From: a virus
Taxonomy: Duplodnaviria; Heunggongvirae; Uroviricota; Caudoviricetes
Reading direction: 5' to 3' (one strand)
DNA: 15,691 nt
IMG/VR virus record: IMGVR_UViG_2778261058_000019
Under the pieces are notes generated by a model, which did no database searches, was not told the DNA's origin, and saw nothing but the letters and a program-made list of their open reading frames with translations. Both the position numbers and the translations under genes were made by a program. Every line of letters begins with the position of its first letter. The stretch's first letter is position 1. Positions 1 to 11,242 of this stretch are shown piece by piece.

Positions 1-114
1 TGGGTGGACTGGTATAACAATCGACGATTGCTGGAAAGGCTGGGCCATATTCCTCCGGCAGAAGCAGAAAAAGTTTATTATGCTTCCATCAGAAACGATG
101 ATCTGGCAGCCTGA
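1..114 (+). CDS. IS3-family transposase (OrfB/DDE type), C-terminal fragment; 5' end lies outside the window
   Basis: Frame 1 is open from base 1 to TGA at 112-114. Translation WVDWYNNRRLLERLGHIPPAEAEKVYYASIRNDDLAA looks like the C-terminal tail of IS3-family transposases; from memory closest to IS629/IS1203. Not verified by search. Confidence 0.6.
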   Translation, partial: WVDWYNNRRLLERLGHIPPAEAEKVYYASIRNDDLAA

Positions 115-156
115 GTTCACAGATAAAACACTCTCCAGGAAAACCGGGGCGGTTCA
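1..156 (+). mobile_element. Right end of an IS3-family insertion sequence (IS629/IS1203-like), with terminal inverted repeat ending ...GGGGCGGTTCA at 156
   Basis: After the transposase stop, bases 115-156 (GTTCACAGATAAAACACTCTCCAGGAAAACCGGGGCGGTTCA) end in CA as IS3-family termini do and match my recollection of the IS629 terminus. Homology to hokD begins immediately at 157. Confidence 0.5.
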
Positions 157-294
157 ATGTTAATCGCCCTGATCGTCATCTGTTTAACCGTCATAGTGAC
201 GGCACTGGTAACGAGGAAAGACCTCTGCGAGGTACGAATCCGAACCGGCCAGACGGAGGTCGCTGTCTTCACAGCTTACGAACCTGAGGAGTAA
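157..294 (+). CDS. hokD: Hok-family membrane toxin, N-terminally truncated (HokD/RelF residues 7-51)
   Basis: ATG 157 to TAA 292-294 encodes MLIALIVICLTVIVTALVTRKDLCEVRIRTGQTEVAVFTAYEPEE (45 aa), matching HokD as I recall it but without the first six residues MKQQKA. An in-frame stop at 124-126 lies inside the IS end, so no upstream start is available. Below the 60-aa cutoff of the ORF track. Confidence 0.7.
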   Translation: MLIALIVICLTVIVTALVTRKDLCEVRIRTGQTEVAVFTAYEPEE

Positions 295-362
295 GAGACC
301 CGGCGGGGGAGAAATCCCTCGCCACCTCTGATGTGGCAGGCATCCTCAACGCACCCGCACTT

Positions 363-389
363 AACCCGCTTCGGCGGGTTTTTGTTTTT
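363..389 (+). terminator. Rho-independent terminator downstream of hok
   Basis: Hairpin CCCGC-TTCG-GCGGG (365-378) followed by TTTTTGTTTTT. Confidence 0.65.
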
Positions 390-510
390 ATTTTCAACGC
401 GTTTGAAGTTCTGGACGGTGCCGGAATAGAATCAAAAATACTTAAGTAGCGCGCAGGGATAAGAGGGATGGTCCCTTAAAGGGGAGAGCTAATTATCCGG
501 AAGGATTCTG

Positions 511-762
511 ATGATGAACATCGAAGAACTGCGTAAAATTTTTTGTGAAGATGGCCTCTATGCTGTGTGCGTTGAAAATGGAAATCTTGTTAGTCATTAC
601 CGCATTATGTGTTTGCGAAAGAATGGGGCTGCGTTAATTAATTTTGTGGATGCTCGGGTCACGGACGGATTTATCTTGCGCGAAGGTGAGTTTGTCACTT
701 CATTACAGGCATTGAAAGAGATCGGAATAAAAGCTGGCTTTTCTGCTTTTTCAGGAGAATAA
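511..762 (+). CDS. rem: Rem, small prophage protein of unknown function (83 aa)
   Basis: ORF 511..762 with SD GGAAGGA at 499-505 five nt before the ATG. Length 83 aa and position between hokD and ydfU match the K-12 Qin layout from memory. Confidence 0.65.
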   Translation: MMNIEELRKIFCEDGLYAVCVENGNLVSHYRIMCLRKNGAALINFVDARVTDGFILREGEFVTSLQALKEIGIKAGFSAFSGE

Positions 763-828
763 ACTCATCTACAATCTTGCGCGGGGCTGAACTCCCGCTG
801 AGTAACACCGTGCCACCGGAGAAAACCG

Positions 829-1107
829 ATGGCACGCAACGCAAAATATTACAATTCTGATAATTCGCCCGTTCTTGCCTGCACGCACGGGCGGTATTCT
901 CACGCATTCAAGTCTGAATGGTTCCAGCACCCTCCATGCACTGCAGAACAGGCCGAATGGCTGATTCATTCTTACCGCAGGCGCGGGTTCGAGGTTAAGA
1001 AAGCTCTCAGTCTCGACTATCGGCACTGGATAATCTCTGTCAGGCTGCCTTATTCCGAACGCCCACCACGTGCGTCCCGCACTTTCCAGCAACGGATCTG
1101 GAGGTAA
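829..1107 (+). CDS. Hypothetical prophage protein (92 aa), translationally coupled to ydfU
   Basis: ATG 829 is preceded by GGAG at 818-821 (7-nt spacer). Stop TAA 1105-1107 overlaps the SD of the next gene, whose GTG is at 1109. No family recognised from the sequence. Confidence 0.45.
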   Translation: MARNAKYYNSDNSPVLACTHGRYSHAFKSEWFQHPPCTAEQAEWLIHSYRRRGFEVKKALSLDYRHWIISVRLPYSERPPRASRTFQQRIWR

Positions 1108-1108
1108 C

Positions 1109-2158
1109 GTGCGGGTATTACTTAGACCTGTTCTGGTGCCTGAGCTTGGGCTGGTGGTCCTTAAGCCGGGCCGTGAATCCATACAGATATTTCATAATCC
1201 TCGAGTGCTGGTGGAACCGGAACCAAAAAGCATGCGTAATCTGCCATCCGGAGTCGTTCCTGCCGTTCGCCAGCCGCTGGCGGAAGACAAAACATTGCTG
1301 CCGTTTTTTAGTAACGAACGGGTGATTCGTGCTGCTGGCGGCGTTGGCGCATTGTCCGACTGGCTATTACGTCATGTTACATCCTGCCAGTGGCCTAATG
1401 GCGATTACCATCACACTGAAACAGTCATTCACCGTTATGGTACCGGCGCAATGGTGTTGTGCTGGCACTGCGACAACCAACTGCGTGACCAGACATCGGA
1501 ATCACTGGAGCTGCTTGCTCAACAAAATCTGACAGCATGGGTGATTGACGTCATCCGTCACGCAATAAGCGGTACGCAGGAGCGGGAATTATCTTTGGCT
1601 GAATTATCCTGGTGGGCGGTCTGCAATCAGGTGGTGGATGCACTACCTGAGGCTGTATCGCGTCGTTCGCTGGGATTACCAGCGGAAAAAATCTGCTCGG
1701 TGTACCGCGAAAGCGACATCGTACCGGGAGAGCAGACCGCCACCAGCATATTGAAACAACGCACAAAAAATCTTGCACCGTTGCCTTACGCCCACCAGCA
1801 ACAAAAATCACCACAGGAAAAGACGGTGGTAAGCATCACCGTTGATCCAGAGTCTCCGGAATCTTTCATGAAGCTGCCTAAACGTCGCCGCTGGGTTAAG
1901 GAGAAATACACACGTTGGGTTAAGACACAGCCGTGTGCTTGCTGCGGTATGCCAGCCGACGATCCGCATCATCTGATTGGTCACGGGCAGGGCGGAATGG
2001 GAACAAAAGCACATGATCTCTTTGTGTTGCCTTTGTGCAGAAAGCATCACAACGAGCTGCATACGGATACAGTGGCATTTGAAGATAAGTATGGCTCCCA
2101 ACTGGAGCTGATATTTCGTTTTATCGATCGCGCGCTGGCAATTGGCGTACTGGCGTAA
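1109..2158 (+). CDS. ydfU: YdfU-like prophage protein (349 aa) with HNH-like Cys/His motif at the C-terminus
   Basis: Long ORF ending TAA 2156-2158. GTG 1109 follows GGAGG (1100-1104) and gives 349 aa, the length I recall for YdfU; the ORF track begins at an upstream ATG (1070, 362 aa). C-terminus reads CACCGMPADDPHHLIGH...CRKHHNELH. Confidence 0.65.
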   Translation: MRVLLRPVLVPELGLVVLKPGRESIQIFHNPRVLVEPEPKSMRNLPSGVVPAVRQPLAEDKTLLPFFSNERVIRAAGGVGALSDWLLRHVTSCQWPNGDYHHTETVIHRYGTGAMVLCWHCDNQLRDQTSESLELLAQQNLTAWVIDVIRHAISGTQERELSLAELSWWAVCNQVVDALPEAVSRRSLGLPAEKICSVYRESDIVPGEQTATSILKQRTKNLAPLPYAHQQQKSPQEKTVVSITVDPESPESFMKLPKRRRWVKEKYTRWVKTQPCACCGMPADDPHHLIGHGQGGMGTKAHDLFVLPLCRKHHNELHTDTVAFEDKYGSQLELIFRFIDRALAIGVLA

Positions 2159-2171
2159 GTGGAGAACGAGC

Positions 2172-2924
2172 ATGAACCTTGAAGCCTTACCAAAATATTA
2201 CTCCCCAAAATCTCCAAAATTGAGCGATGACGCTCCAGCGACAGGCACCGGTTGTTTAACAATTACGGATGTAATGGCAGCGCAGGGGATGGTGCAGTCG
2301 AAAGCACCACTTGGGTTGGCCTTATTTCTGGCAAAAGTTGGTGTTCAGGACCCTCAGTTTGCGATTGAAGGCCTGCTAAATTACGCGATGGCACTGGATA
2401 ACCCGACATTGAACAAATTGAGTGAAGAAATCCGGTTACAGATTATTCCTTACCTCGTGAGTTTTGCCTTTGCTGATTACTCCAGGTCTGCGGCAAGTAA
2501 GGCTCGCTGTGAGCATTGTTCAGGTACGGGATTTTATAATGTATTGCGCGAAGTGGTGAAACACTACAGACGCGGGGAATCTGTAATCAAGGAAGAATGG
2601 GTGAAGGAACTATGTCAGCATTGCCATGGTAAGGGCGAAGCCAGCACAGCGTGCAGAGGGTGTAAGGGTAAAGGGATTGTTCTGGATGAAAAAAGAACCC
2701 GGTTTCATGGCGTACCGGTATATAAGATTTGTGGGCGTTGTAATGGAAACCGGTTTAGTCGTTTACCGACCACGCTGGCACGACGTCATGTCCAGAAGCT
2801 GGTACCAGACCTGACCGATTATCAGTGGTATAAGGGGTATGCGGACGTCATTGGTAAACTGGTAACAAAGTGCTGGCAGGAAGAAGCATACGCGGAAGCG
2901 CAATTGAGGAAGGTGACGAGATAA
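2172..2924 (+). CDS. quuQ: Late-gene antiterminator Q homolog (250 aa) with four DnaJ-type CxxCxGxG repeats
   Basis: ATG 2172 follows GGAG (2161-2164) and gives 250 aa; the ORF track starts at an in-frame TTG at 2142. It sits just upstream of a promoter-plus-terminator module and the lysis genes, as Q does in lambdoid phages. Cys repeats are CEHCSGTG, CQHCHGKG, CRGCKGKG and CGRCNGN. Confidence 0.7.
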   Translation: MNLEALPKYYSPKSPKLSDDAPATGTGCLTITDVMAAQGMVQSKAPLGLALFLAKVGVQDPQFAIEGLLNYAMALDNPTLNKLSEEIRLQIIPYLVSFAFADYSRSAASKARCEHCSGTGFYNVLREVVKHYRRGESVIKEEWVKELCQHCHGKGEASTACRGCKGKGIVLDEKRTRFHGVPVYKICGRCNGNRFSRLPTTLARRHVQKLVPDLTDYQWYKGYADVIGKLVTKCWQEEAYAEAQLRKVTR

Positions 2925-2955
2925 ATGATTTTTGCTGAAGATGGCGACATGATGT

Positions 2956-2984
2956 TTGCATTTTTCAAAAAATATGGATAAAAT
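2956..2984 (+). promoter_or_regulatory. Candidate Q-dependent late promoter (PR'-like)
   Basis: TTGCAT (2956-2961), 17-bp spacer, TAAAAT (2979-2984), immediately after the Q homolog and about 45 nt before a strong terminator. This is the typical PR'-qut-tR' arrangement; called by eye only. Confidence 0.35.
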
Positions 2985-3030
2985 TTTTTCAACGATGGGC
3001 TTTGTATACCCGACGTTAAGAAAAAGTAGA

Positions 3031-3057
3031 AAACCCGCTGATGAGCGGGTTTTGTGC
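3031..3057 (+). terminator. Rho-independent terminator (tR'-like) after the candidate late promoter
   Basis: Hairpin AACCCGCT-GATG-AGCGGGTT followed by TTTGTGCTTT. Confidence 0.65.
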
Positions 3058-3345
3058 TTTAAATGGGGCAATGGTAATGTTGAATCTCATCCCGGGACTC
3101 ATGTCTGTTAACTTATTATTTAGCTGGTGACTTGGTTATTTGCCTGATGTTTAAAATGTTTTCTTCCAGTACAATGTCCCTAAACACAATGAGTCTGCTT
3201 ATTATATTATTAGCAGAGCTATTACGGCCAAAGTACAGCATAAGCTTTTAAAGCCAATCAACCAGTCATCAAGACAGACGGGGTTATTCATAAAAACTCT
3301 CCATGTGTGATCCGATGGGGCCTGAAATTAAAGCTTTAATATAGC

Positions 3346-3558
3346 TCATGAAAGGTAAACATTGGCAGCTGAAGGGCCACGCAGACCATTTATCCGGCAA
3401 AATTCCACGCGTAATCCGGTGGTAATTTCTTCTGCATCGCGGAGATTGAGCGCTGAAACATGAAGCTGGACATCGATACGACCATCGGATGGGGTGATAA
3501 GACCCTTGCCGCTTTTGCCGTCAAAGGTTTTGACAATTCCTGTCATTTTACGGGACAA
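3346..3558 (-). CDS. cspF: Cold-shock protein CspF (CspA family, 70 aa)
   Basis: Translation [26 protein letters not shown]...[16 protein letters not shown] is a cold-shock domain protein. The first codon is TTG at 3558-3556 with SD AAGGA six nt upstream; the first in-frame ATG (3546) would have an 18-nt spacing. Confidence 0.8.
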
Positions 3559-3858
3559 AAAAATTCCTTAATACTGATAACTTGGCGCACTATACACACG
3601 TTCCTGAAGAAAGCTATAGTTTTTTGATGGGGTTGAAGATGGCTGGATGTCTAAAATAAACATTGCTTCATATGTTCAACTATGCGTTAATGATTGCGTC
3701 GGTTTGAAGAACAGACGATATACGAAGTAGTTTACTAAAGCAGTTCTCATTTCAGGTGTTATTCACTTATTCCTTCTTTGAGTCTCTCCAATTAAGTACG
3801 AAGTCGTTTCTGTTATGCAAACCATTTATGCCGAAAGGCTCAAGTTAAGGAATGTAGA

Positions 3859-4074
3859 ATGTCAAATAAAATGACTGGTTTAGTAAAATGGTTTAACGCT
3901 GATAAAGGTTTCGGCTTTATTTCTCCTGTTGATGGTAGTAAAGATGTGTTTGTGCATTTTTCTGCGATTCAGAATGATAATTATCGAACCTTATTTGAAG
4001 GTCAAAAGGTTACCTTCTCTATAGAGAGTGGTGCTAAAGGTCCTGCAGCAGCAAATGTCATCATTACTGATTAA
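3859..4074 (+). CDS. cspB: Cold-shock protein CspB (CspA family, 71 aa)
   Basis: [38 protein letters not shown]... carries the cold-shock domain RNP motifs KGFGFI and VFVHF. SD AAGGA at 3847-3851, ATG at 3859. Confidence 0.9.
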
Positions 4075-4356
4075 AATTCATCGCTCGTCTGTATACGATA
4101 ACGAAGAAGGCTGATGCCTGAGTAGAGATACGGACAGAGTAGTGAATATTGGATCTCTTTAATAAAAAGTAAGGAGGTCCAATACATGAAACAATGGCTA
4201 GCATATTTGGCAAAATCTTAATCAGGAAAAGTATGCTAACCATTGTGGTGAAGTGCAGGTTTGCTGCATGAATAGTTTTACAGCAGAAGCTAACTGCTGG
4301 CATGGCAAAACAAAGTGCGTAAGTGGATGACTCCCACAAAAAGCACCACAATCTCA

Positions 4357-4378
4357 AACCCGCTCAGGCGGGTTTTTT
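4357..4378. terminator. Rho-independent terminator, probably bidirectional (cspB transcript and the convergent zinc-ribbon gene)
   Basis: Hairpin AACCCGC-TCAG-GCGGGTT followed by TTTTTT on the + strand, with an A-run upstream that gives a U-run on the - strand. Confidence 0.65.
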
Positions 4379-4437
4379 ATTATCTGCTTTAAATATATTA
4401 TTAAAATATAAAAAATACTTGTTACTAATAAAATCAA

Positions 4438-4608
4438 TCAGGCTACAGCTTTAAGATTTGTCTGGAATACTTTGTTGCAATGAGGGCAGATCAAAAGGGC
4501 ACCTTTTTGTACTCTTGAAAAACTGTGTTCTGACTCTTGGGTGCAGTTTGGGCAGGAACATTTAACGAGATAATTACGGCGTGATTTTGAGTTTTTACGT
4601 TCTGACAT
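4438..4608 (-). CDS. ynfU: Small zinc-ribbon protein (56 aa; CxCxxC...CxxC)
   Basis: ATG at 4608-4606 is preceded by AGGA about 8 nt upstream. Product MSERKNSKSRRNYLVKCSCPNCTQESEHSFSRVQKGALLICPHCNKVFQTNLKAVA. The track's 73-aa version starts at an upstream ATG with no SD. The symbol ynfU (56-aa zinc-binding protein in Qin) is from memory and is uncertain. Confidence 0.5.
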   Translation of the reverse strand: MSERKNSKSRRNYLVKCSCPNCTQESEHSFSRVQKGALLICPHCNKVFQTNLKAVA

Positions 4609-4827
4609 AGGCTTTTCCTGTATAAATGGCCGTATACAGTACACTAAATATGAAAACATTTCTCGTATTATTATTTTATATATGACTTTCTTTCAAAATA
4701 ATTACCCACATTTTTAATGTGTATGTTTTTTTAGCGCCGTTGAGAACAACGTGTGCTGTCAAAACTACCCCGTAGACTCCGATCTTTTCAAACATATTGC
4801 ACCATCCGTGTACATCGGGGTGAGGAT

Positions 4828-5043
4828 ATGAAATCAATGGATAAGTTAACAACAGGTGTTGCCTATGGCACATCGGCGGGTAATGCTGGTTTCTGGGCAT
4901 TGCAGTTACTCGATAAAGTAACTCCGTCACAGTGGGCTGCAATCGGTGTGCTGGGTAGCCTGGTTTTTGGCCTGCTGACGTATCTGACAAATCTTTATTT
5001 CAAGATTAAAGAAGACAGGCGTAAGGCTGCGAGAGGAGAGTAA
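4828..5043 (+). CDS. essQ: Class II pinholin, S21-like (71 aa), with dual-start motif MKSM
   Basis: [71 protein letters not shown] closely resembles the phage 21 pinholin as I recall it. Met1 and Met4 give the holin/antiholin dual start. A GGGGTGAGGA SD precedes; the ORF track starts 25 codons upstream at an ATG with no SD. Confidence 0.85.
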
Positions 5044-5047
5044 TCCA

Positions 5048-5355
5048 ATGACTCAAGACTATGAACTGGTTGTGAAAGGAGTCCGTAATTTTGAGAATAA
5101 AGTTACGGTAACTGTAGCCTTACAGGACAAAGAACGCTTTGACGGTGAAATTTTTGACCTGGATGTCGCCATGGACCGTGTTGAAGGAGCTGCGCTGGAG
5201 TTTTATGAGGCAGCAGCCAGAAGGAGCGTCCGGCAAGTCTTCCTGGAAGTAGCAGAAAAATTGTCAGAAAAAGTTGAGTCTTATCTGCAGCATCAGTACT
5301 CCTTTAAGATTGAAAATCCTGCCAATAAGCACGAGCGTCCTCATCATAAATATCT

Positions 5356-5359
<4 letters not shown>
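5048..5359 (+). CDS. ydfR: YdfR-like protein (103 aa) inserted between holin and endolysin
   Basis: ORF with strong SD GAGAGGAGAG (5031-5040); stop TGA 5357-5359 overlaps the endolysin ATG (ATGA). Function unknown. Confidence 0.7.
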
Positions 5360-6383
<1,024 letters not shown>

Positions 6384-6609
6384 GGTAATATTAAATCGGA
6401 ACATTTACATCGCGGAATGTAAAATTTAAATAAAAAGGACTCTTCCATGAGCCAAAATTCCTGAAATCTTAAGGGTAAGATAAAAGGTCTTAATCAGAAT
6501 GACACGTTTTATTAATAAATAAAGCTATTCTTTCATTGCTGTGTTTTTCTTTACAAAAGTAATCCTTGCTATGGGTGGTTAATCATGCGTTAATGGTGTT
6601 CTGGTTTGT

Positions 6610-6642
6610 TACAAATTTATCTGAAGCAGTCATTGTTATAAT
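6610..6642 (+). promoter_or_regulatory. Candidate cspI promoter (perfect -10 TATAAT at 6637-6642, weak -35, AT-rich upstream)
   Basis: TATAAT lies about 100 nt upstream of the cspI ATG, consistent with the long 5' UTRs of cspA-family genes. Called by eye; low confidence. Confidence 0.3.
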
Positions 6643-6745
6643 TTTATTATTTGTACCTCTTGAGATTTCCTTGTTGGTTTTTCTCTCTGATATTTTTTTT
6701 CGGACCATTCTGCCCAAGGGCTAATTTCTTCAAAAGGTAATAATT

Positions 6746-6958
6746 ATGTCTAACAAAATGACTGGTTTAGTGAAATGGTTTAACCCTGAAAAAGGTTTTG
6801 GTTTCATCACGCCGAAAGATGGCAGCAAAGATGTGTTTGTCCATTTCTCAGCAATTCAGAGCAACGATTTCAAAACATTAACTGAGAATCAGGAAGTTGA
6901 ATTTGGTATTGAGAACGGACCTAAAGGTCCTGCCGCTGTTCATGTAGTGGCGCTTTGA
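6746..6958 (+). CDS. cspI: Cold-shock protein CspI (CspA family, 70 aa)
   Basis: [38 protein letters not shown]... is a cold-shock domain protein and a close paralog of the cspB copy at 3859. Confidence 0.9.
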
Positions 6959-7163
6959 GGTAGACAATATTACAAACCATATTCACTTTAGATGCCCGTG
7001 TTGTCATGGTTCCCAGTATAGAACATCATCTTTTGATGTTTCTGACATGAATCCTTTCGGGGCAAAATGTATCTTTTGTAAATCAATGATGATTACATTT
7101 GATAATATTTCACAATACTTAAATGCCAGCCGTCTGTCGTTGGATTTAAAAAAGTGAAAATGA

Positions 7164-7186
7164 AGGCTCCTTCGGGAGCTTTTTTG
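7164..7186 (+). terminator. Rho-independent terminator ending the cspI transcript
   Basis: Hairpin GCTCC-TTCG-GGAGC followed by TTTTTT, about 200 nt after the cspI stop and right after the stop of a small Cys-rich reading frame. Confidence 0.65.
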
Positions 7187-7304
7187 CTTGGTGTCTATTC
7201 GATGGATACTCACATACTACGGTAACATCATGAAAAAAATCATAGTTTTTTTTAACTCTGAACCAGCAGTGGTAGTGCCAGCGATGACTGGAGTTAACAC
7301 CATC

Positions 7305-7460
7305 ATGCGTGAATATCCAAATGGCGAAAAAACACACCTTACTGTAATGGCCGCAGGGTTTCCATCTCTGACCGGAGATCATAAAGTCATTTATGTAGCC
7401 GCGGATCGACATGTTACTTCAGAAGAAATTCTGGAAGCAGCAATAAGGCTCTTGAGTTGA
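7305..7460 (+). CDS. ynfN: YnfN-like small protein (51 aa from ATG 7305; a 76-aa form from ATG 7230 is possible)
   Basis: ORF ending TGA 7458-7460. GGAG at 7290-7293 precedes ATG 7305, giving the 51 aa I recall for YnfN. In-frame upstream ATGs at 7284 and 7230 cannot be excluded. Confidence 0.45.
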   Translation: MREYPNGEKTHLTVMAAGFPSLTGDHKVIYVAADRHVTSEEILEAAIRLLS

Positions 7461-7554
7461 TTTGATGCTATTGCATTGATAATTCAGGAAAATTCTCTTT
7501 GTCTGTTTGTGTAAAATTTAGACTATCGTATGTTGATTATTGCGATGTTTCATC

Positions 7555-7583
7555 TTATCTTTTACACGTTTGCACCATATAAT
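7555..7583 (+). promoter_or_regulatory. Candidate sigma-70 promoter for gnsB
   Basis: TTATCT (7555-7560), 17-bp spacer, perfect TATAAT (7578-7583), about 50 nt upstream of the gnsB ATG. Confidence 0.4.
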
Positions 7584-7631
7584 CGACTTACTGTGTAACT
7601 GGAAAGTCATAACAGACTAAAAGAGGAAATG

Positions 7632-7804
7632 ATGAATATTGAAAACTTAAAAACAAAAGCAGAAGCAGATATTTCTGAATATATAACAAAAAAATTATTG
7701 AACTTAAGAAAAAGACCGGGAAAGAAGTTACCAGTATTCAGTTTACCGCACGGGAAAAAATGACGGGTCTTGAAAGCTATGATGTCAAGATTAATTTAAT
7801 CTGA
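7632..7804 (+). pseudogene. gnsB: gnsB (GnsA/GnsB family), disrupted by a -1 frameshift in an A7 tract
   Basis: From ATG 7632 the frame reads MNIENLKTKAEADISEYITKK, then runs through the A-run at 7688-7694 to a stop at 7761-7763 (43 aa). The next frame continues IIELKKKTGKEVTSIQFTAREKMTGLESYDVKINLI to TGA 7802-7804. Joined, the two parts align without gaps to the 57-aa GnsA/GnsB pattern as I recall it, which needs A8 rather than A7. Confidence 0.6.
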
Positions 7805-7833
7805 TGTATTCAATAATAAAATTTATCCATAAA

Positions 7834-7856
7834 CCTCGTTTTTACGGGGTTTTGTT
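7834..7856 (+). terminator. Weak rho-independent terminator after gnsB
   Basis: Hairpin CCTCG-TTTTTA-CGGGG (one G-U pair) followed by TTTTGTT. Confidence 0.4.
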
Positions 7857-7955
7857 ATATTTGAATGGTTCCGAATATCTAAATCACAATTGTTGATGGT
7901 TTTTATTAAACCAATGCAGTCCGGCTCAGGAGTGAGAGAAGCCGGACGTTATGGT

Positions 7956-8366
7956 TTAGCGTGGTAAGATCTGTGTAGTTTTCTGGATGCTTTCAGTAAA
8001 TAGTAATGAATTATCAAAGGTATAGTAATATCTTTTTTGTTCGTGGATATTTGTAACCCACCGAAAAACTCCTGCTTTAGCAAGGTTTCTTCTGTATTCC
8101 TGAAATGTGATCTCTCTGGATTTCAGCTTATTAGAGGTCGTTTCTATAAGATGCCTATCCTTTGAAAATTTGACAGACACAATGTTTTTTAGGCCCTTTA
8201 ATAACACTGTATTATCATTTTTTAATACAATATGAACATTCTCTGTGGCTAAATAGTAAATGTAATGTGAGACATTGTGACGTTTTAGCTCAGAATAAAA
8301 CCATTGATAGTTTAAATCGTTTCGAACTTTATCAAATATTTGTTTAAAAATGACTACCTGATCCAT
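7956..8366 (-). CDS. ydfO: YdfO-like protein (DUF1398-type, 136 aa)
   Basis: Minus-strand ORF. ATG at 8366-8364 is preceded by GGAAGG about 7 nt upstream and gives 136 aa (MDQVVIFKQ...); the track's 141-aa start at 8381 has no SD. A stem-loop at 7919-7947 lies just past the stop. Confidence 0.65.
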
Positions 8367-8423
8367 AGATAAACCTTCCATGTGATATGAGGGGGCGTAG
8401 TCTGCACGATTATCTAAATTGCT

Positions 8424-8657
8424 TCAATCTGGTCTGACCTGTTTTCTGAGCAATTCAGTAATGTCACTCTTTTCTTTGTTTGCTTCAGAAGAAACTCTTT
8501 TTTCTGAGCACAGTCTCCGGCGGCAGGCTTCAATGACCCAGGCTGAGAAATTCCCGGACCCTTTTTGCTCAAGAGCGATGTTAATTTGTTCAATCATTTG
8601 GTTAGGAAAGCGGATGTTGCGGGTTGTTGTTCTGCGGGTTCTGTTCTTCGTTGACAT
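8424..8657 (-). CDS. ynfO: YnfO-like small protein (77 aa), predicted ribbon-helix-helix DNA-binding fold
   Basis: Minus-strand ORF 57 nt upstream of ydfO on the same strand. Arg-rich N-terminus, then NIRFPNQMIEQINIALEQKG...NFSAWVIEACRRRL, which looks like a strand-helix-helix (Arc/CopG-like) pattern. Fold assignment is inference. Confidence 0.6.
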   Translation of the reverse strand: MSTKNRTRRTTTRNIRFPNQMIEQINIALEQKGSGNFSAWVIEACRRRLCSEKRVSSEANKEKSDITELLRKQVRPD

Positions 8658-8829
8658 GAGGTTGCCCCGTATTCAGTGTCGCTGATTTGTATTGTCTGAA
8701 GTTGTTTTTACGTTAAGTTGATGCAGATCAATTAATACGATACCTGCGTCATAATTGATTATTTGACGTGGTTTGATGGCCTCCACGCACGTTGTGATAT
8801 GTAGATGATAATCATTATCACTTTACGGG

Positions 8830-9040
8830 TCCTTTCCGGTGATCCGACAGGTTACGGGGCGGCGACCTCGCGGGTTTTCGCTATTTATGAAAATTTTCCG
8901 GTTTAAGGCATTTCCGTTCTTCTTCGTCGTAACTTAATGTTTTTATTTAAAATACCCCCTGAAAAGAAAGGAAACGACAGGTGCTGAAAACGAGCTTTTG
9001 GGCCTCTGTCGTTTCCTTTCTCTGTTTTTGGCCGTGGAAT
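8830..9040 (+). other. Lambda-type cos site (cosQ-cosN-cosB); 12-nt cohesive end GGGCGGCGACCT at 8857-8868
   Basis: Bases 8841-8880 read GATCCGACAGGTTACG|GGGCGGCGACCTCGCGGGTTTTCG, the fused right and left ends of phage lambda as I recall them. The roughly 170 bp upstream also resemble the lambda right end, and the downstream region leads into Nu1. Confidence 0.85.
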
Positions 9041-9045
9041 GAACA

Positions 9046-9591
9046 ATGGAAGTCAACAAAAAGCAGCTGGCTGACATTTTCGGTGCGAGTATCCGTACCA
9101 TTCAGAACTGGCAGGAACAGGGAATGCCCGTTCTGCGAGGCGGTGGCAAGGGTAATGAGGTGCTTTATGACTCTGCCGCCGTTATAAGATGGTATGCCGA
9201 AAGGGATGCTGAAATTGAGAACGAAAAGCTGCGCCGGGAAGTTGAAGAACTGCGGCAGGCCAGCGAGACAGATCTCCAGCCAGGGACTATTGAGTACGAA
9301 CGCCATCGACTTACGCGTGCGCAGGCCGACGCACAGGAGCTGAAAAATGCCAGAGACTCCGCTGAAGTGGTGGAAACCGCATTCTGTACTTTCGTGCTGT
9401 CGCGGATCGCAGGTGAAATTGCCAGTATTCTCGACGGGATCCCCCTGTCGGTGCAGCGGCGTTTTCCGGAACTGGAAAACCGACATGTTGATTTCCTGAA
9501 ACGGGATATCATCAAAGCCATGAACAAAGCAGCCGCGCTGGATGAACTGATACCGGGGTTGCTGAGTGAATATATCGAACAGTCAGGTTAA
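9046..9591 (+). CDS. nohQ: Terminase small subunit Nu1 homolog (181 aa), apparently full length
   Basis: MEVNKKQLADIFGASIRTIQNWQEQGMPVLRGGGKGNEVLYDSAAVIRWYAERDAEIEN... is essentially lambda gpNu1 with its N-terminal helix-turn-helix. The 3' end overlaps the start of the terminase A reading frame as in lambda. Symbol by analogy with Qin (nohA/nohQ). Confidence 0.85.
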   Translation: MEVNKKQLADIFGASIRTIQNWQEQGMPVLRGGGKGNEVLYDSAAVIRWYAERDAEIENEKLRREVEELRQASETDLQPGTIEYERHRLTRAQADAQELKNARDSAEVVETAFCTFVLSRIAGEIASILDGIPLSVQRRFPELENRHVDFLKRDIIKAMNKAAALDELIPGLLSEYIEQSG

Positions 9592-11242
9592 CAGGCTGCG
9601 GCATTTTGTCCGCGCCGGGCTTCGCTCACTGTTCAGGCCGGAGCCACAGACCGCCGTTGAATGGGCGGATGCTAATTACTATCTCCCGAAAGAATCCGCA
9701 TACCAGGAAGGGCGCTGGGAAACACTGCCCTTTCAGCGGGCCATCATGAATGCGATGGGCAGCGACTACATCCGTGAGGTGAATGTGGTGAAGTCTGCCC
9801 GTGTCGGTTATTCCAAAATGCTGCTGGGTGTTTATGCCTACTTTATAGAGCATAAGCAGCGCAACACCCTTATCTGGTTGCCGACGGATGGTGATGCCGA
9901 GAACTTTATGAAAACCCACGTTGAGCCGACCATCCGCGATATTCCGTCGCTGCTGGCGCTGGCTCCGTGGTATGGCAAAAAGCACCGGGATAACACGCTC
10001 ACTATGAAGCGTTTTTCCAATGGTCGTGGCTTCTGGTGCCTGGGCGGTAAAGCGGCAAAAAACTACCGTGAAAAGTCGGTGGATGTGGCGGGTTATGATG
10101 AACTTGCTGCCTTTGATGAGGATATTGAACAGGAAGGCTCTCCGACGTTCCTTGGCGACAAACGTATTGAAGGCTCGGTCTGGCCAAAGTCCATCCGTGG
10201 CTCCACGCCCAAAGTGAGAGGCACCTGCCAGATTGAGCGTGCAGCCAGTGAATCCCTGCATTTTATGCGTTTTCATGTTGCCTGCCCGCACTGCGGGGAG
10301 GAGCAGTATCTTAAATTTGGCGACAAAGAGACGCCGTTTGGCCTCAAATGGACGCCGGATGACCCCTCTAGCGTGTTTTATCTCTGCGAGCATAATGCCT
10401 GCGTCATCCGCCAGCAGGAGCTGGACTTTACTGATGCCCGTTATATCTGCGAAAAGACCGGGATCTGGACCCGTGATGGCATTCTCTGGTTTTCGTCATC
10501 CGGTGAAGAGATTGAGCCGCCGGACAGTGTGACCTTTCACATCTGGACGGCGTACAGCCCGTTCACCACCTGGGTGCAGATTGTCAAAGACTGGATGAAG
10601 ACGAAAGGGGATACGGGAAAACGTAAAACCTTCGTGAACACCACGCTCGGTGAGACATGGGAAGCGAAAATCGGCGAACGTCCGGATGCTGAGGTGATGG
10701 CGGAGCGGAAAGAGCATTATTCAGCGCCCGTTCCTGACCGTGTGGCTTACCTGACCGCCGGTATCGACTCCCAGCTGGACCGCTACGAAATGCGCGTATG
10801 GGGATGGGGGCCGGGTGAGGAAAGCTGGCTGATTGACCGGCAGATTATTATGGGTCGCCACGACGATGAACAGACGCTGCTGCGTGTGGATGAGGCCATC
10901 AATAAAACCTATACCCGCCGGAATGGTGCAGAAATGTCGGTATCCCGTATCTGCTGGGATACTGGCGGGATTGACCCGACCATTGTGTATGAACGCTCGA
11001 AAAAACATGGGCTGTTCCGGGTGATCCCCATTAAAGGGGCATCCGTCTACGGAAAGCCGGTGGCCAGCATGCCACGTAAGCGAAACAAAAACGGGGTTTA
11101 CCTTACCGAAATCGGTACGGATACCGCGAAAGAGCAGATTTATAACCGCTTCACACTGACGCCGGAAGGGGATGAACCGCTTCCCGGTGCCGTTCACTTC
11201 CCGAATACCCGAAACTTGCAGTTGCTTATCCGTCAGGCGTGA
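9566..11242 (+). pseudogene. Terminase large subunit (gpA-like), 3'-truncated by a deletion; 558 codons with a short out-of-frame tail
   Basis: GTG 9566 starts MNISNSQVNRLRHFVRAGLRSLFRPEPQTAVEWADANYYLPKES..., which follows lambda gpA (641 aa) as I recall it up to ...LPGAVHFPN near 11207. The frame then reads [11 protein letters not shown] and stops at 11240-11242, so the C-terminal ~90 residues of gpA are missing. Confidence 0.85.

Follow-up and report, generated by a model that had tools for sequence, protein, structure and literature searches.

An IS629/IS1203-type insertion sequence end at codon 7 of hokD in a Qin-type cryptic prophage leaves a probably silent 45-codon remnant

Insertion sequences and the decay of chromosomal hok genes

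Canonical hok genes are controlled through a mok leader, the antisense RNA Sok and a 5'-3' fold-back, and the toxins that they encode act at very low doses. Where chromosomal members of the family in K-12 have been struck by mobile elements, these are reportedly IS150 and IS186, lying close to but outside the toxin ORF. The genes concerned, hokA, hokC and hokE, are inactivated by insertion sequences (Pedersen & Gerdes 1999, summarised in PMC2654758, PMC8309996), and chromosomal hok loci at large decay by IS insertion, point mutation or rearrangement (PMC2654758, PMC8309996). A different element, IS629—"also known as IS1203v, IS3 family" (review, PMC9330008)—is at issue in the locus described here. 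IS3-family elements begin with TG and finish with CA, have imperfect terminal inverted repeats of about 25 bp, and encode a DDE (rve) transposase in two overlapping ORFs joined by a -1 programmed frameshift. Full IS629/IS1203 copies are 1310 bp long, are annotated with a programmed frameshift and are flanked by 3-bp target repeats, whereas the DNA analysed here holds the last 156 bp only.

That DNA, hereafter the window, is a stretch of 15,691 nucleotides that lies at the very start of draft contig NLNZ01000029.1 (GCA_002229985.1); the contig begins inside the IS, and the left IS end and the DNA beyond it lie on another contig. As in K-12 hokA, hokC and hokE, a chromosomal Hok-family toxin gene is disabled by an IS. 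In contrast to those loci, the element is of the IS629 type and sits inside the ORF, at codon 6/7, of a relBE-linked hokD whose Sok/mok leader seems already to have been lost. The allele is new, and the kind of event, an IS-inactivated chromosomal hok gene, is already known. The reading that we favor, and regard as very likely, is that a recent insertion of an IS629/IS1203-type element inactivates hokD and leaves a silent remnant of 45 codons.

The IS end and the truncated gene

The identity of the element, its boundary and the exact break point in hokD are matters of direct observation. Positions 1-156 (+ strand) are, by nucleotide identity, the right-hand 156 bp of a 1310-bp IS629/IS1203-type element of the IS3 family, the rest of which lies off the contig. 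This stretch matches the ends of IS3-family transposases at ~24,900 places, distributed over 4,111 of the 5,426 complete genomes of E. coli, at 99.4% in the best case, and many Escherichia and Shigella plasmids carry matches as well. Under the ISfinder isoform rule, roughly 95% identity denotes the same IS; the element annotated as IS629 on pO157 Sakai lies above that mark, sharing 152 of 156 bases (97.4%) with the window over the 12% of the element that can be compared. Taken across the IS629/IS1203 elements of pO157 Sakai, STEC and Shigella, the likeness comprises 97–99% identity over the terminal 156 bp, the terminus ...GGTTCA and a transposase stop 42 nt from the end.

Six full IS629-type copies of 1309-1310 bp were cut from other genomes for comparison. 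Their first bases are TGAACCGCCCC and their last are GGGGCGGTTCA, the equivalent of window 146-156; in every copy the last A is followed by unrelated DNA. In the annotated copies the transposase CDS stops 42 nt short of the IS end, equivalent to window 114; by these annotated CDS ends, 1-114 (+) hold the last 37 codons of the transposase, from its OrfB part, together with the TGA stop at 112-114. Against profile models, the 37 codons match the C-terminal end of transpos_IS3, rve_2 and rve_3 below threshold, the NCBIfam transpos_IS3 match being weak and covering profile positions 347-369 of 369. The right terminal inverted repeat (IRR) occupies 132-156 (+), with its CA at 155-156, and was delimited by comparison with left ends: the reverse complement of 132-156, TGAACCGCCCCGGTTTTCCTGGAGA, agrees with the left end of the full copies at 22 of 25 positions, and the IS-end 13-mer is present without mismatch at 144-156. 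Both the terminal CA and the imperfect inverted repeat of the IS3 family are therefore seen at the right end, the only end available. An earlier note on this DNA had placed an IS3-family CA terminus at 156 behind a transposase stop at 112-114, and these comparisons bear it out: the six full copies end at the same base, and the search of 1-156 against known elements returns the IS629/IS1203 type with its boundary at 156.

The transposase end shares the reading frame of the hok remnant, with two stops, TGA at 112-114 and TAA at 124-126, standing between them. At position 74 the window copy has a private T where the compared IS629/IS1203 copies (6/6) have C, and just downstream of T74 a TATTAT hexamer at 76-81 resembles a -10 element; no matching -35 was found.

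From position 157 onward the sequence is that of hokD. Codons 7-51 and the TAA stop lie at 157-294 (+), identified by identity to HokD, as an ORF of 45 codons that opens at the native internal Met7. Where K-12 reads ATG AAG CAG CAA AAG GCG ATG TTA, the window reads ...GGTTCA ATG TTA, 157 being the A of codon 7, and the DNA of 157-800 is 100% identical to the hokD-rem segment of K-12 MG1655. The 45-aa product (MLIALIV...EPEE) equals residues 7-51 of the 51-aa HokD (HOKD_ECOLI). It scores 82.2 bits with Pfam HOK_GEF (PF01848), against a cut-off of 22, over profile positions 2-42 of 42, and stays below the cut-offs of the NCBIfam Hok models (45.2 vs 73; 36.1 vs 89). The alignment to K-12 and the protein identity thus confirm to the base what had been proposed from the letters alone, namely an ORF equivalent to HokD 7-51 that meets the IS end exactly at codon 7; the Pfam match likewise upholds the proposal that this ORF, from a native internal Met, keeps essentially the whole conserved Hok/Gef domain.

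What the remnant lacks is the basic N-terminus, MKQQKA; the ORF opens directly with the hydrophobic helix and is in that sense an incomplete Hok ORF. Cys30, the Tyr47 codon (TACG, 277-280), which is editable, and the native 3' untranslated region are all retained. The latter, at 295-390 (+), contains an intrinsic terminator (stem 363-380, then a T-run) and is identical in K-12 and in GCA_054857115.1. Within it, 303-384 (+) give a sub-threshold match to Rfam isrK, at 25 bits where the gathering score is 50 (E ~0.004-0.016), and this match to an Hfq-binding prophage sRNA of Salmonella recurs in three hokD loci of different classes (also L032 2948-3029 and L036 847-928).

Uninterrupted loci illustrate what stood upstream. 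In K-12 MG1655 and in GCA_054857115.1 (locus L032), relB-relE-hokD (relBEF, Qin) is intact, and both share with the window the sequence from 157 and the order hokD-rem-ydfU-ydfT. Ahead of codon 7, by contrast, these loci have 18 extra coding bases (MKQQKA), an AGGAG Shine-Dalgarno (SD) and relE 71 nt upstream, where the window has the IS end instead. GCA_054857115.1 matches the window from Met7 to 7694 with 0 mismatches, and a private SNP at 5732 in the lysozyme gene rrrQ (RrrQ) is a rare allele common to the two. This assembly represents a near-isogenic "before" state, and the insertion is therefore recent.

The window from 157 is a Qin-type cryptic prophage, running from hokD, rem, ydfU and ydfT onward to ydfJ, with 99.94% identity to K-12 over 157-9574. 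Elsewhere within it, gnsB (7679-7804) appears frameshifted: one base is missing at ~7687 relative to K-12 and strain MLI105, giving 41 aa versus 57 aa. Compared with MLI105, the window also lacks ~3 kb between the terminase large subunit and tail-fibre genes, the joint lying at ~11205-11211 (region 11184-11211); the deletion in K-12 is a different one. At a distance of 9-20 bp from the joint is a 13-mer, TGAACGGCACCGG, that resembles the IS629 end with 2 mismatches, possibly by coincidence.

Origin of the junction

How did the element arrive at codon 7? In the mechanism that we propose, an IS629/IS1203-type element transposed recently between codons 6 and 7 of hokD in a Qin-type cryptic prophage, in the orientation of hokD, most likely by copy-out/paste-in insertion with duplication of the codon 7 ATG. 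Four of the six other IS629-type copies are flanked by 3-bp direct repeats (AAG, CCT, GAC and CAC), and two have no duplication. Because such repeats occur at 4/6 of these copies, a simple insertion would be expected to have duplicated ATG at 157-159 (+), which would then serve at once as Met7 and as the 3-bp target-site duplication. The upstream fragment would read ATG AAG CAG CAA AAG GCG ATG, followed by the TGA with which the IS starts, and would encode the seven residues MKQQKAM; the left junction would read ...AAAGGCGATG directly followed by TGAACCGCCCC, putting AGCAAAAGGCGATG before TGAACCGCCCCGG. The gene would thereby be split into a 7-codon head, still with relBE ~1.3 kb upstream, and a 45-codon tail. 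On this geometry, codons 1-6 and relBE have most likely been displaced by 1.3 kb, not deleted.

Comparison with the other copies makes simple insertion, as opposed to deletion or rearrangement, a fairly probable reading. Its principal competitor, which we consider rather unlikely, is an IS-adjacent deletion or rearrangement: IS629 would have inserted first further upstream, in relE or before relB, and the DNA up to codon 7 would then have been lost, or, in a variant, recombination between two IS copies would have brought an unrelated IS end to hokD. The head of hokD, and perhaps relBE, would then be truly gone, as the earlier note had taken them to be. IS629 together with the IS-excision enhancer can indeed produce large adjacent deletions with the IS left intact (PMC9330008), and co-oriented IS629-type copies do occur elsewhere in relE (F41, K99S, EC24.26) and upstream of relB (05_3471). 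Yet in these upstream-inserted copies 4-6 of the final 156 bases are different, and neither the F41-type relE insertion nor the pre-relB insertion of 05_3471 is a likely direct precursor that deletion could have converted into the window junction, given an IS that differs at 4-6/156 or in length. The absence of target duplications from two of the six examined copies suggests that rearranged copies are common, but the remaining four are simple insertions with 3-bp repeats, and the window itself bears no sign of deletion. A further point for rearrangement is that insertion beside an IR-like sequence resembles IR-targeted events, for which the standard duplication is not required (PMC9333248).

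That assembly produced the junction as an artefact—by forming a chimeric contig end in a repeat, with hokD intact in the real genome—has a probability close to nil. The window does open with the first base of a draft contig, and this base falls within a multi-copy repeat, but a second contig, NLOO01000088.1 (GCA_002229605.1), begins at window 59 and has the same junction, with 0 mismatches over 11.3 kb. The break, moreover, falls exactly at the IS terminus, as it would in a true insertion. Since the same junction is present in a second assembly with a different contig start, it is real and not a one-off chimera. An exact-junction scan of the 5,426 complete E. coli genomes did not find the IS-hokD junction, nor was the exact junction found in GTDB representative genomes or JGI metagenomes; a 20-mer junction match in a Desulfopila contig was discarded as chance.

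The element lies beside a sequence that resembles its own end. Exactly 3 bp past the IS end, the target TTAATCGCCCTG at 160-171 (+) shares 9 of 12 positions with the IS terminal 12 bp, TGAACCGCCCCG, a likeness reached by only 0.27% of random window sites when calculated post hoc for this single event. At the six other IS629-type insertion sites there is no likeness to the IS terminal repeat. We know of no demonstration of IR-targeting for IS629. The arrangement of IRR, 3-bp spacer and IR-like sequence, as in a circle junction, recalls IR-targeted insertion by IS911 and IS30 (PMC9333248), whereas the match here is 9/12 only and concerns one event found post hoc.

In other E. coli, IS629/IS1203-type elements oriented as hokD have inserted independently at no fewer than four other positions in the relB-hokD-rem interval, among them sites inside relE, before relB, 3 bp past the hokD stop and ~360 bp ahead of hokD. 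This short interval is perhaps a local IS629/IS1203 hotspot.

Expression and effect of the remnant

An understanding of what the remnant could do begins with the control that its gene formerly had. In leader-bearing loci that served as positive controls (an O157 chromosome prophage and a plasmid), the Rfam sok model RF01794 scores 104-115 bits just upstream of hokD (L036 536-685; L037 514-688). Neither the window nor the uninterrupted relBE-linked relative (GCA_054857115.1, L032 2100-3300) gave a hit with the same model, and neither thus shows the sok component of a mok/Sok leader. Leader-bearing and relBE-linked hokD can be aligned only from ~15 nt before ATG1. Judged by these alignments and model searches, genes annotated "hokD" appear to comprise two classes, with and without a Sok/mok leader, and the relBE-linked hokD appears to have lost its leader before the IS inserted. 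What the IS took away is the AGGAG SD, codons 1-6 (Met1 to Ala6) and the direct linkage to the relBE promoter. The earlier note had described the remnant as devoid of its native 5' control region; this is correct for the SD, for Met1-Ala6 and for the relBE-promoter linkage, but the Sok/mok leader was no loss to the IS, being already absent, by the null result with the sok model, from the uninterrupted relative.

Transcription of the tail would have to begin within or upstream of the IS. A crude consensus scan found no sigma-70-like promoter in 1-156 or in a full-length IS copy. A hybrid promoter, with a -35 in the IRR and a -10 in the flank, was considered and rejected for the remnant ORF: the ATG abuts the IS, and the start would fall downstream of the ATG. 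For that reason a transcript must either start inside the IS or run through it. Outward promoters are possible in IS3-family elements, for instance P3R of IS3 (PMC8860574). Because scanning revealed no terminator-like site between the transposase gene and the ATG, nor in about 500 bp at the right end of the IS, read-through RNA is plausible, if weak.

In any such RNA, the start codon would sit in the loop of a stable hairpin. RNA folding predicts, at 145-171 (+), a 10-bp stem (145-154/162-171) closing a 7-nt loop (155-161) that holds the AUG at 157-159. Whatever the context folded, both the MFE and the centroid structure include the hairpin, which has -13.7 kcal/mol when taken alone and a pairing probability of ~1.0, and which exists because hokD 160-171 resembles the IS terminal repeat. 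At 146-152, 4-10 nt before the ATG, GGGGCGG forms a G-rich SD-like tract; the predicted energy of its duplex with the anti-SD is -7.2 kcal/mol for the tract alone versus -7.4 for the native Met1 site, but the tract is predicted to be fully base-paired in the stem. Since the stem buries the only SD-like tract and leaves the AUG in a hairpin loop, translation should be very poor, and these predictions make expression of the stub unlikely. The claim that the ORF has no SD in front of it therefore needs rewording: an SD-like tract is present at 146-152, but no usable site is, if the tract is buried in the -13.7 kcal/mol stem as predicted. In its wider sense, that no usable ribosome-binding site or promoter is evident before the stub, the claim accords with the null promoter scan and the sequestered tract.

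Were the peptide made, its shortened N-terminus might matter. The truncation removes both N-terminal lysines, K2 and K5, and with them all positive charge ahead of the helix, while TRKD follows the helix; by the positive-inside rule, correct membrane insertion is therefore doubtful. In Hok of R1, the K2E substitution causes loss of function, with no detectable protein (PMC9841398). The type I toxins ZorO and IbsC can do without N-terminal residues (PMC8309996). A list of homologs that are toxic when over-expressed includes full-length HokD, and TadA editing of hokC/D/E has been reported (bioRxiv 10.1101/2025.08.07.668861); the TadA-editable codon kept in the stub is that of Tyr47. Abundant HokD variants (on up to 999 or more contigs, and one of them plasmid-borne) have Ile, not Met, at position 7, and because Met7 is not conserved, Met1 is taken as the genuine start. 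Considered together, the evidence on the effect of the stub leans against toxicity, and we infer that the stub is probably both silent and harmless.

The same stub arises elsewhere by point lesions. An identical 45-aa product was seen on 624 contigs, the sources of which call it "Hok family toxin", and each of the ten loci inspected (L004-L013) carries a lesion within hokD codons 1-6 (about 4980-5003); these loci were gathered by searching for that exact product, an ascertainment bias under which no enrichment is claimed. Four types of lesion occur: ATG to ACG, in three inspected loci of which one is relBE-linked; CAG to TAG at codon 3 (Q3); CAA to TAA at codon 4 (Q4); and loss of one base from the CAAAAG run. 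The notion that gene callers merely prefer Met7 at intact loci is wrong, given a codon 1-6 lesion in 10/10 loci. These point-mutation remnants have the same residual Met7 ORF and keep their native upstream DNA, whereas here the IS replaces it. The IS629 allele arrives at the same remnant by a fifth route, and the stub appears, from the sequences of these loci, to be common and tolerated even behind native promoters.

Two readings would give the short form a function. The more direct one, in line with the earlier note's suggestion that the product could still be toxic, is very unlikely: here the stub would be expressed as a Hok toxin that is shortened at its N-terminus but still active. It supposes that transcription arrives by IS read-through or from an internal outward promoter, that initiation occurs at the loop AUG at 157, and that the 45-aa peptide inserts in the inner membrane and depolarises it. 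The IS and the stub are co-oriented, and the final ~500 bp of the IS have no terminator-like site, but no promoter-like site was found in 1-156 or in the full copy; the AUG is predicted to be unpaired in its loop, but the SD-like tract would be fully sequestered in the stem. Similarly, an active toxin could be built on the 41 of 42 Pfam Hok/Gef positions, Cys30 and the Tyr47 codon (both toxicity-linked) and the native 3' UTR that are retained, and full-length HokD is listed as toxic on over-expression (bioRxiv 10.1101/2025.08.07.668861). Set against this are the loss of both N-terminal lysines, with the precedent of Hok R1 K2E and its lack of detectable protein (PMC9841398), and the natural HokD variants with Ile at position 7, in which Met7 is no conserved start. 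Many strains also keep the stub downstream of native promoters and leaders that are intact, and, because the relBE-linked class is without the Sok antitoxin, a stub that was both readily made and toxic would be hard to tolerate. The second reading, that the Met7 form is a recurrently selected, attenuated short isoform and not debris, draws on the at least five independent routes that destroy Met1 while sparing the Met7 ORF, the Tyr47 codon and the 3' UTR; we consider it highly improbable. If it were true, a short toxin would be wired to IS629 read-through, and toxin dose would be linked to transposase expression.

Inactivation of hokD by the IS629/IS1203-type insertion, by comparison, would yield a loss-of-function allele whose tail is a pseudogene remnant and no working toxin gene. 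Were the stub nonetheless expressed from the IS, it would offer a natural experiment on the need for the basic N-terminus of Hok in membrane insertion and killing. For annotation, a caution follows: the 45-aa product that databases name "Hok family toxin" is the tail of a broken gene in every locus examined. For the family, the locus would add one more prophage-borne hok gene disabled by a mobile element, which fits the decay of loci that are no longer needed.
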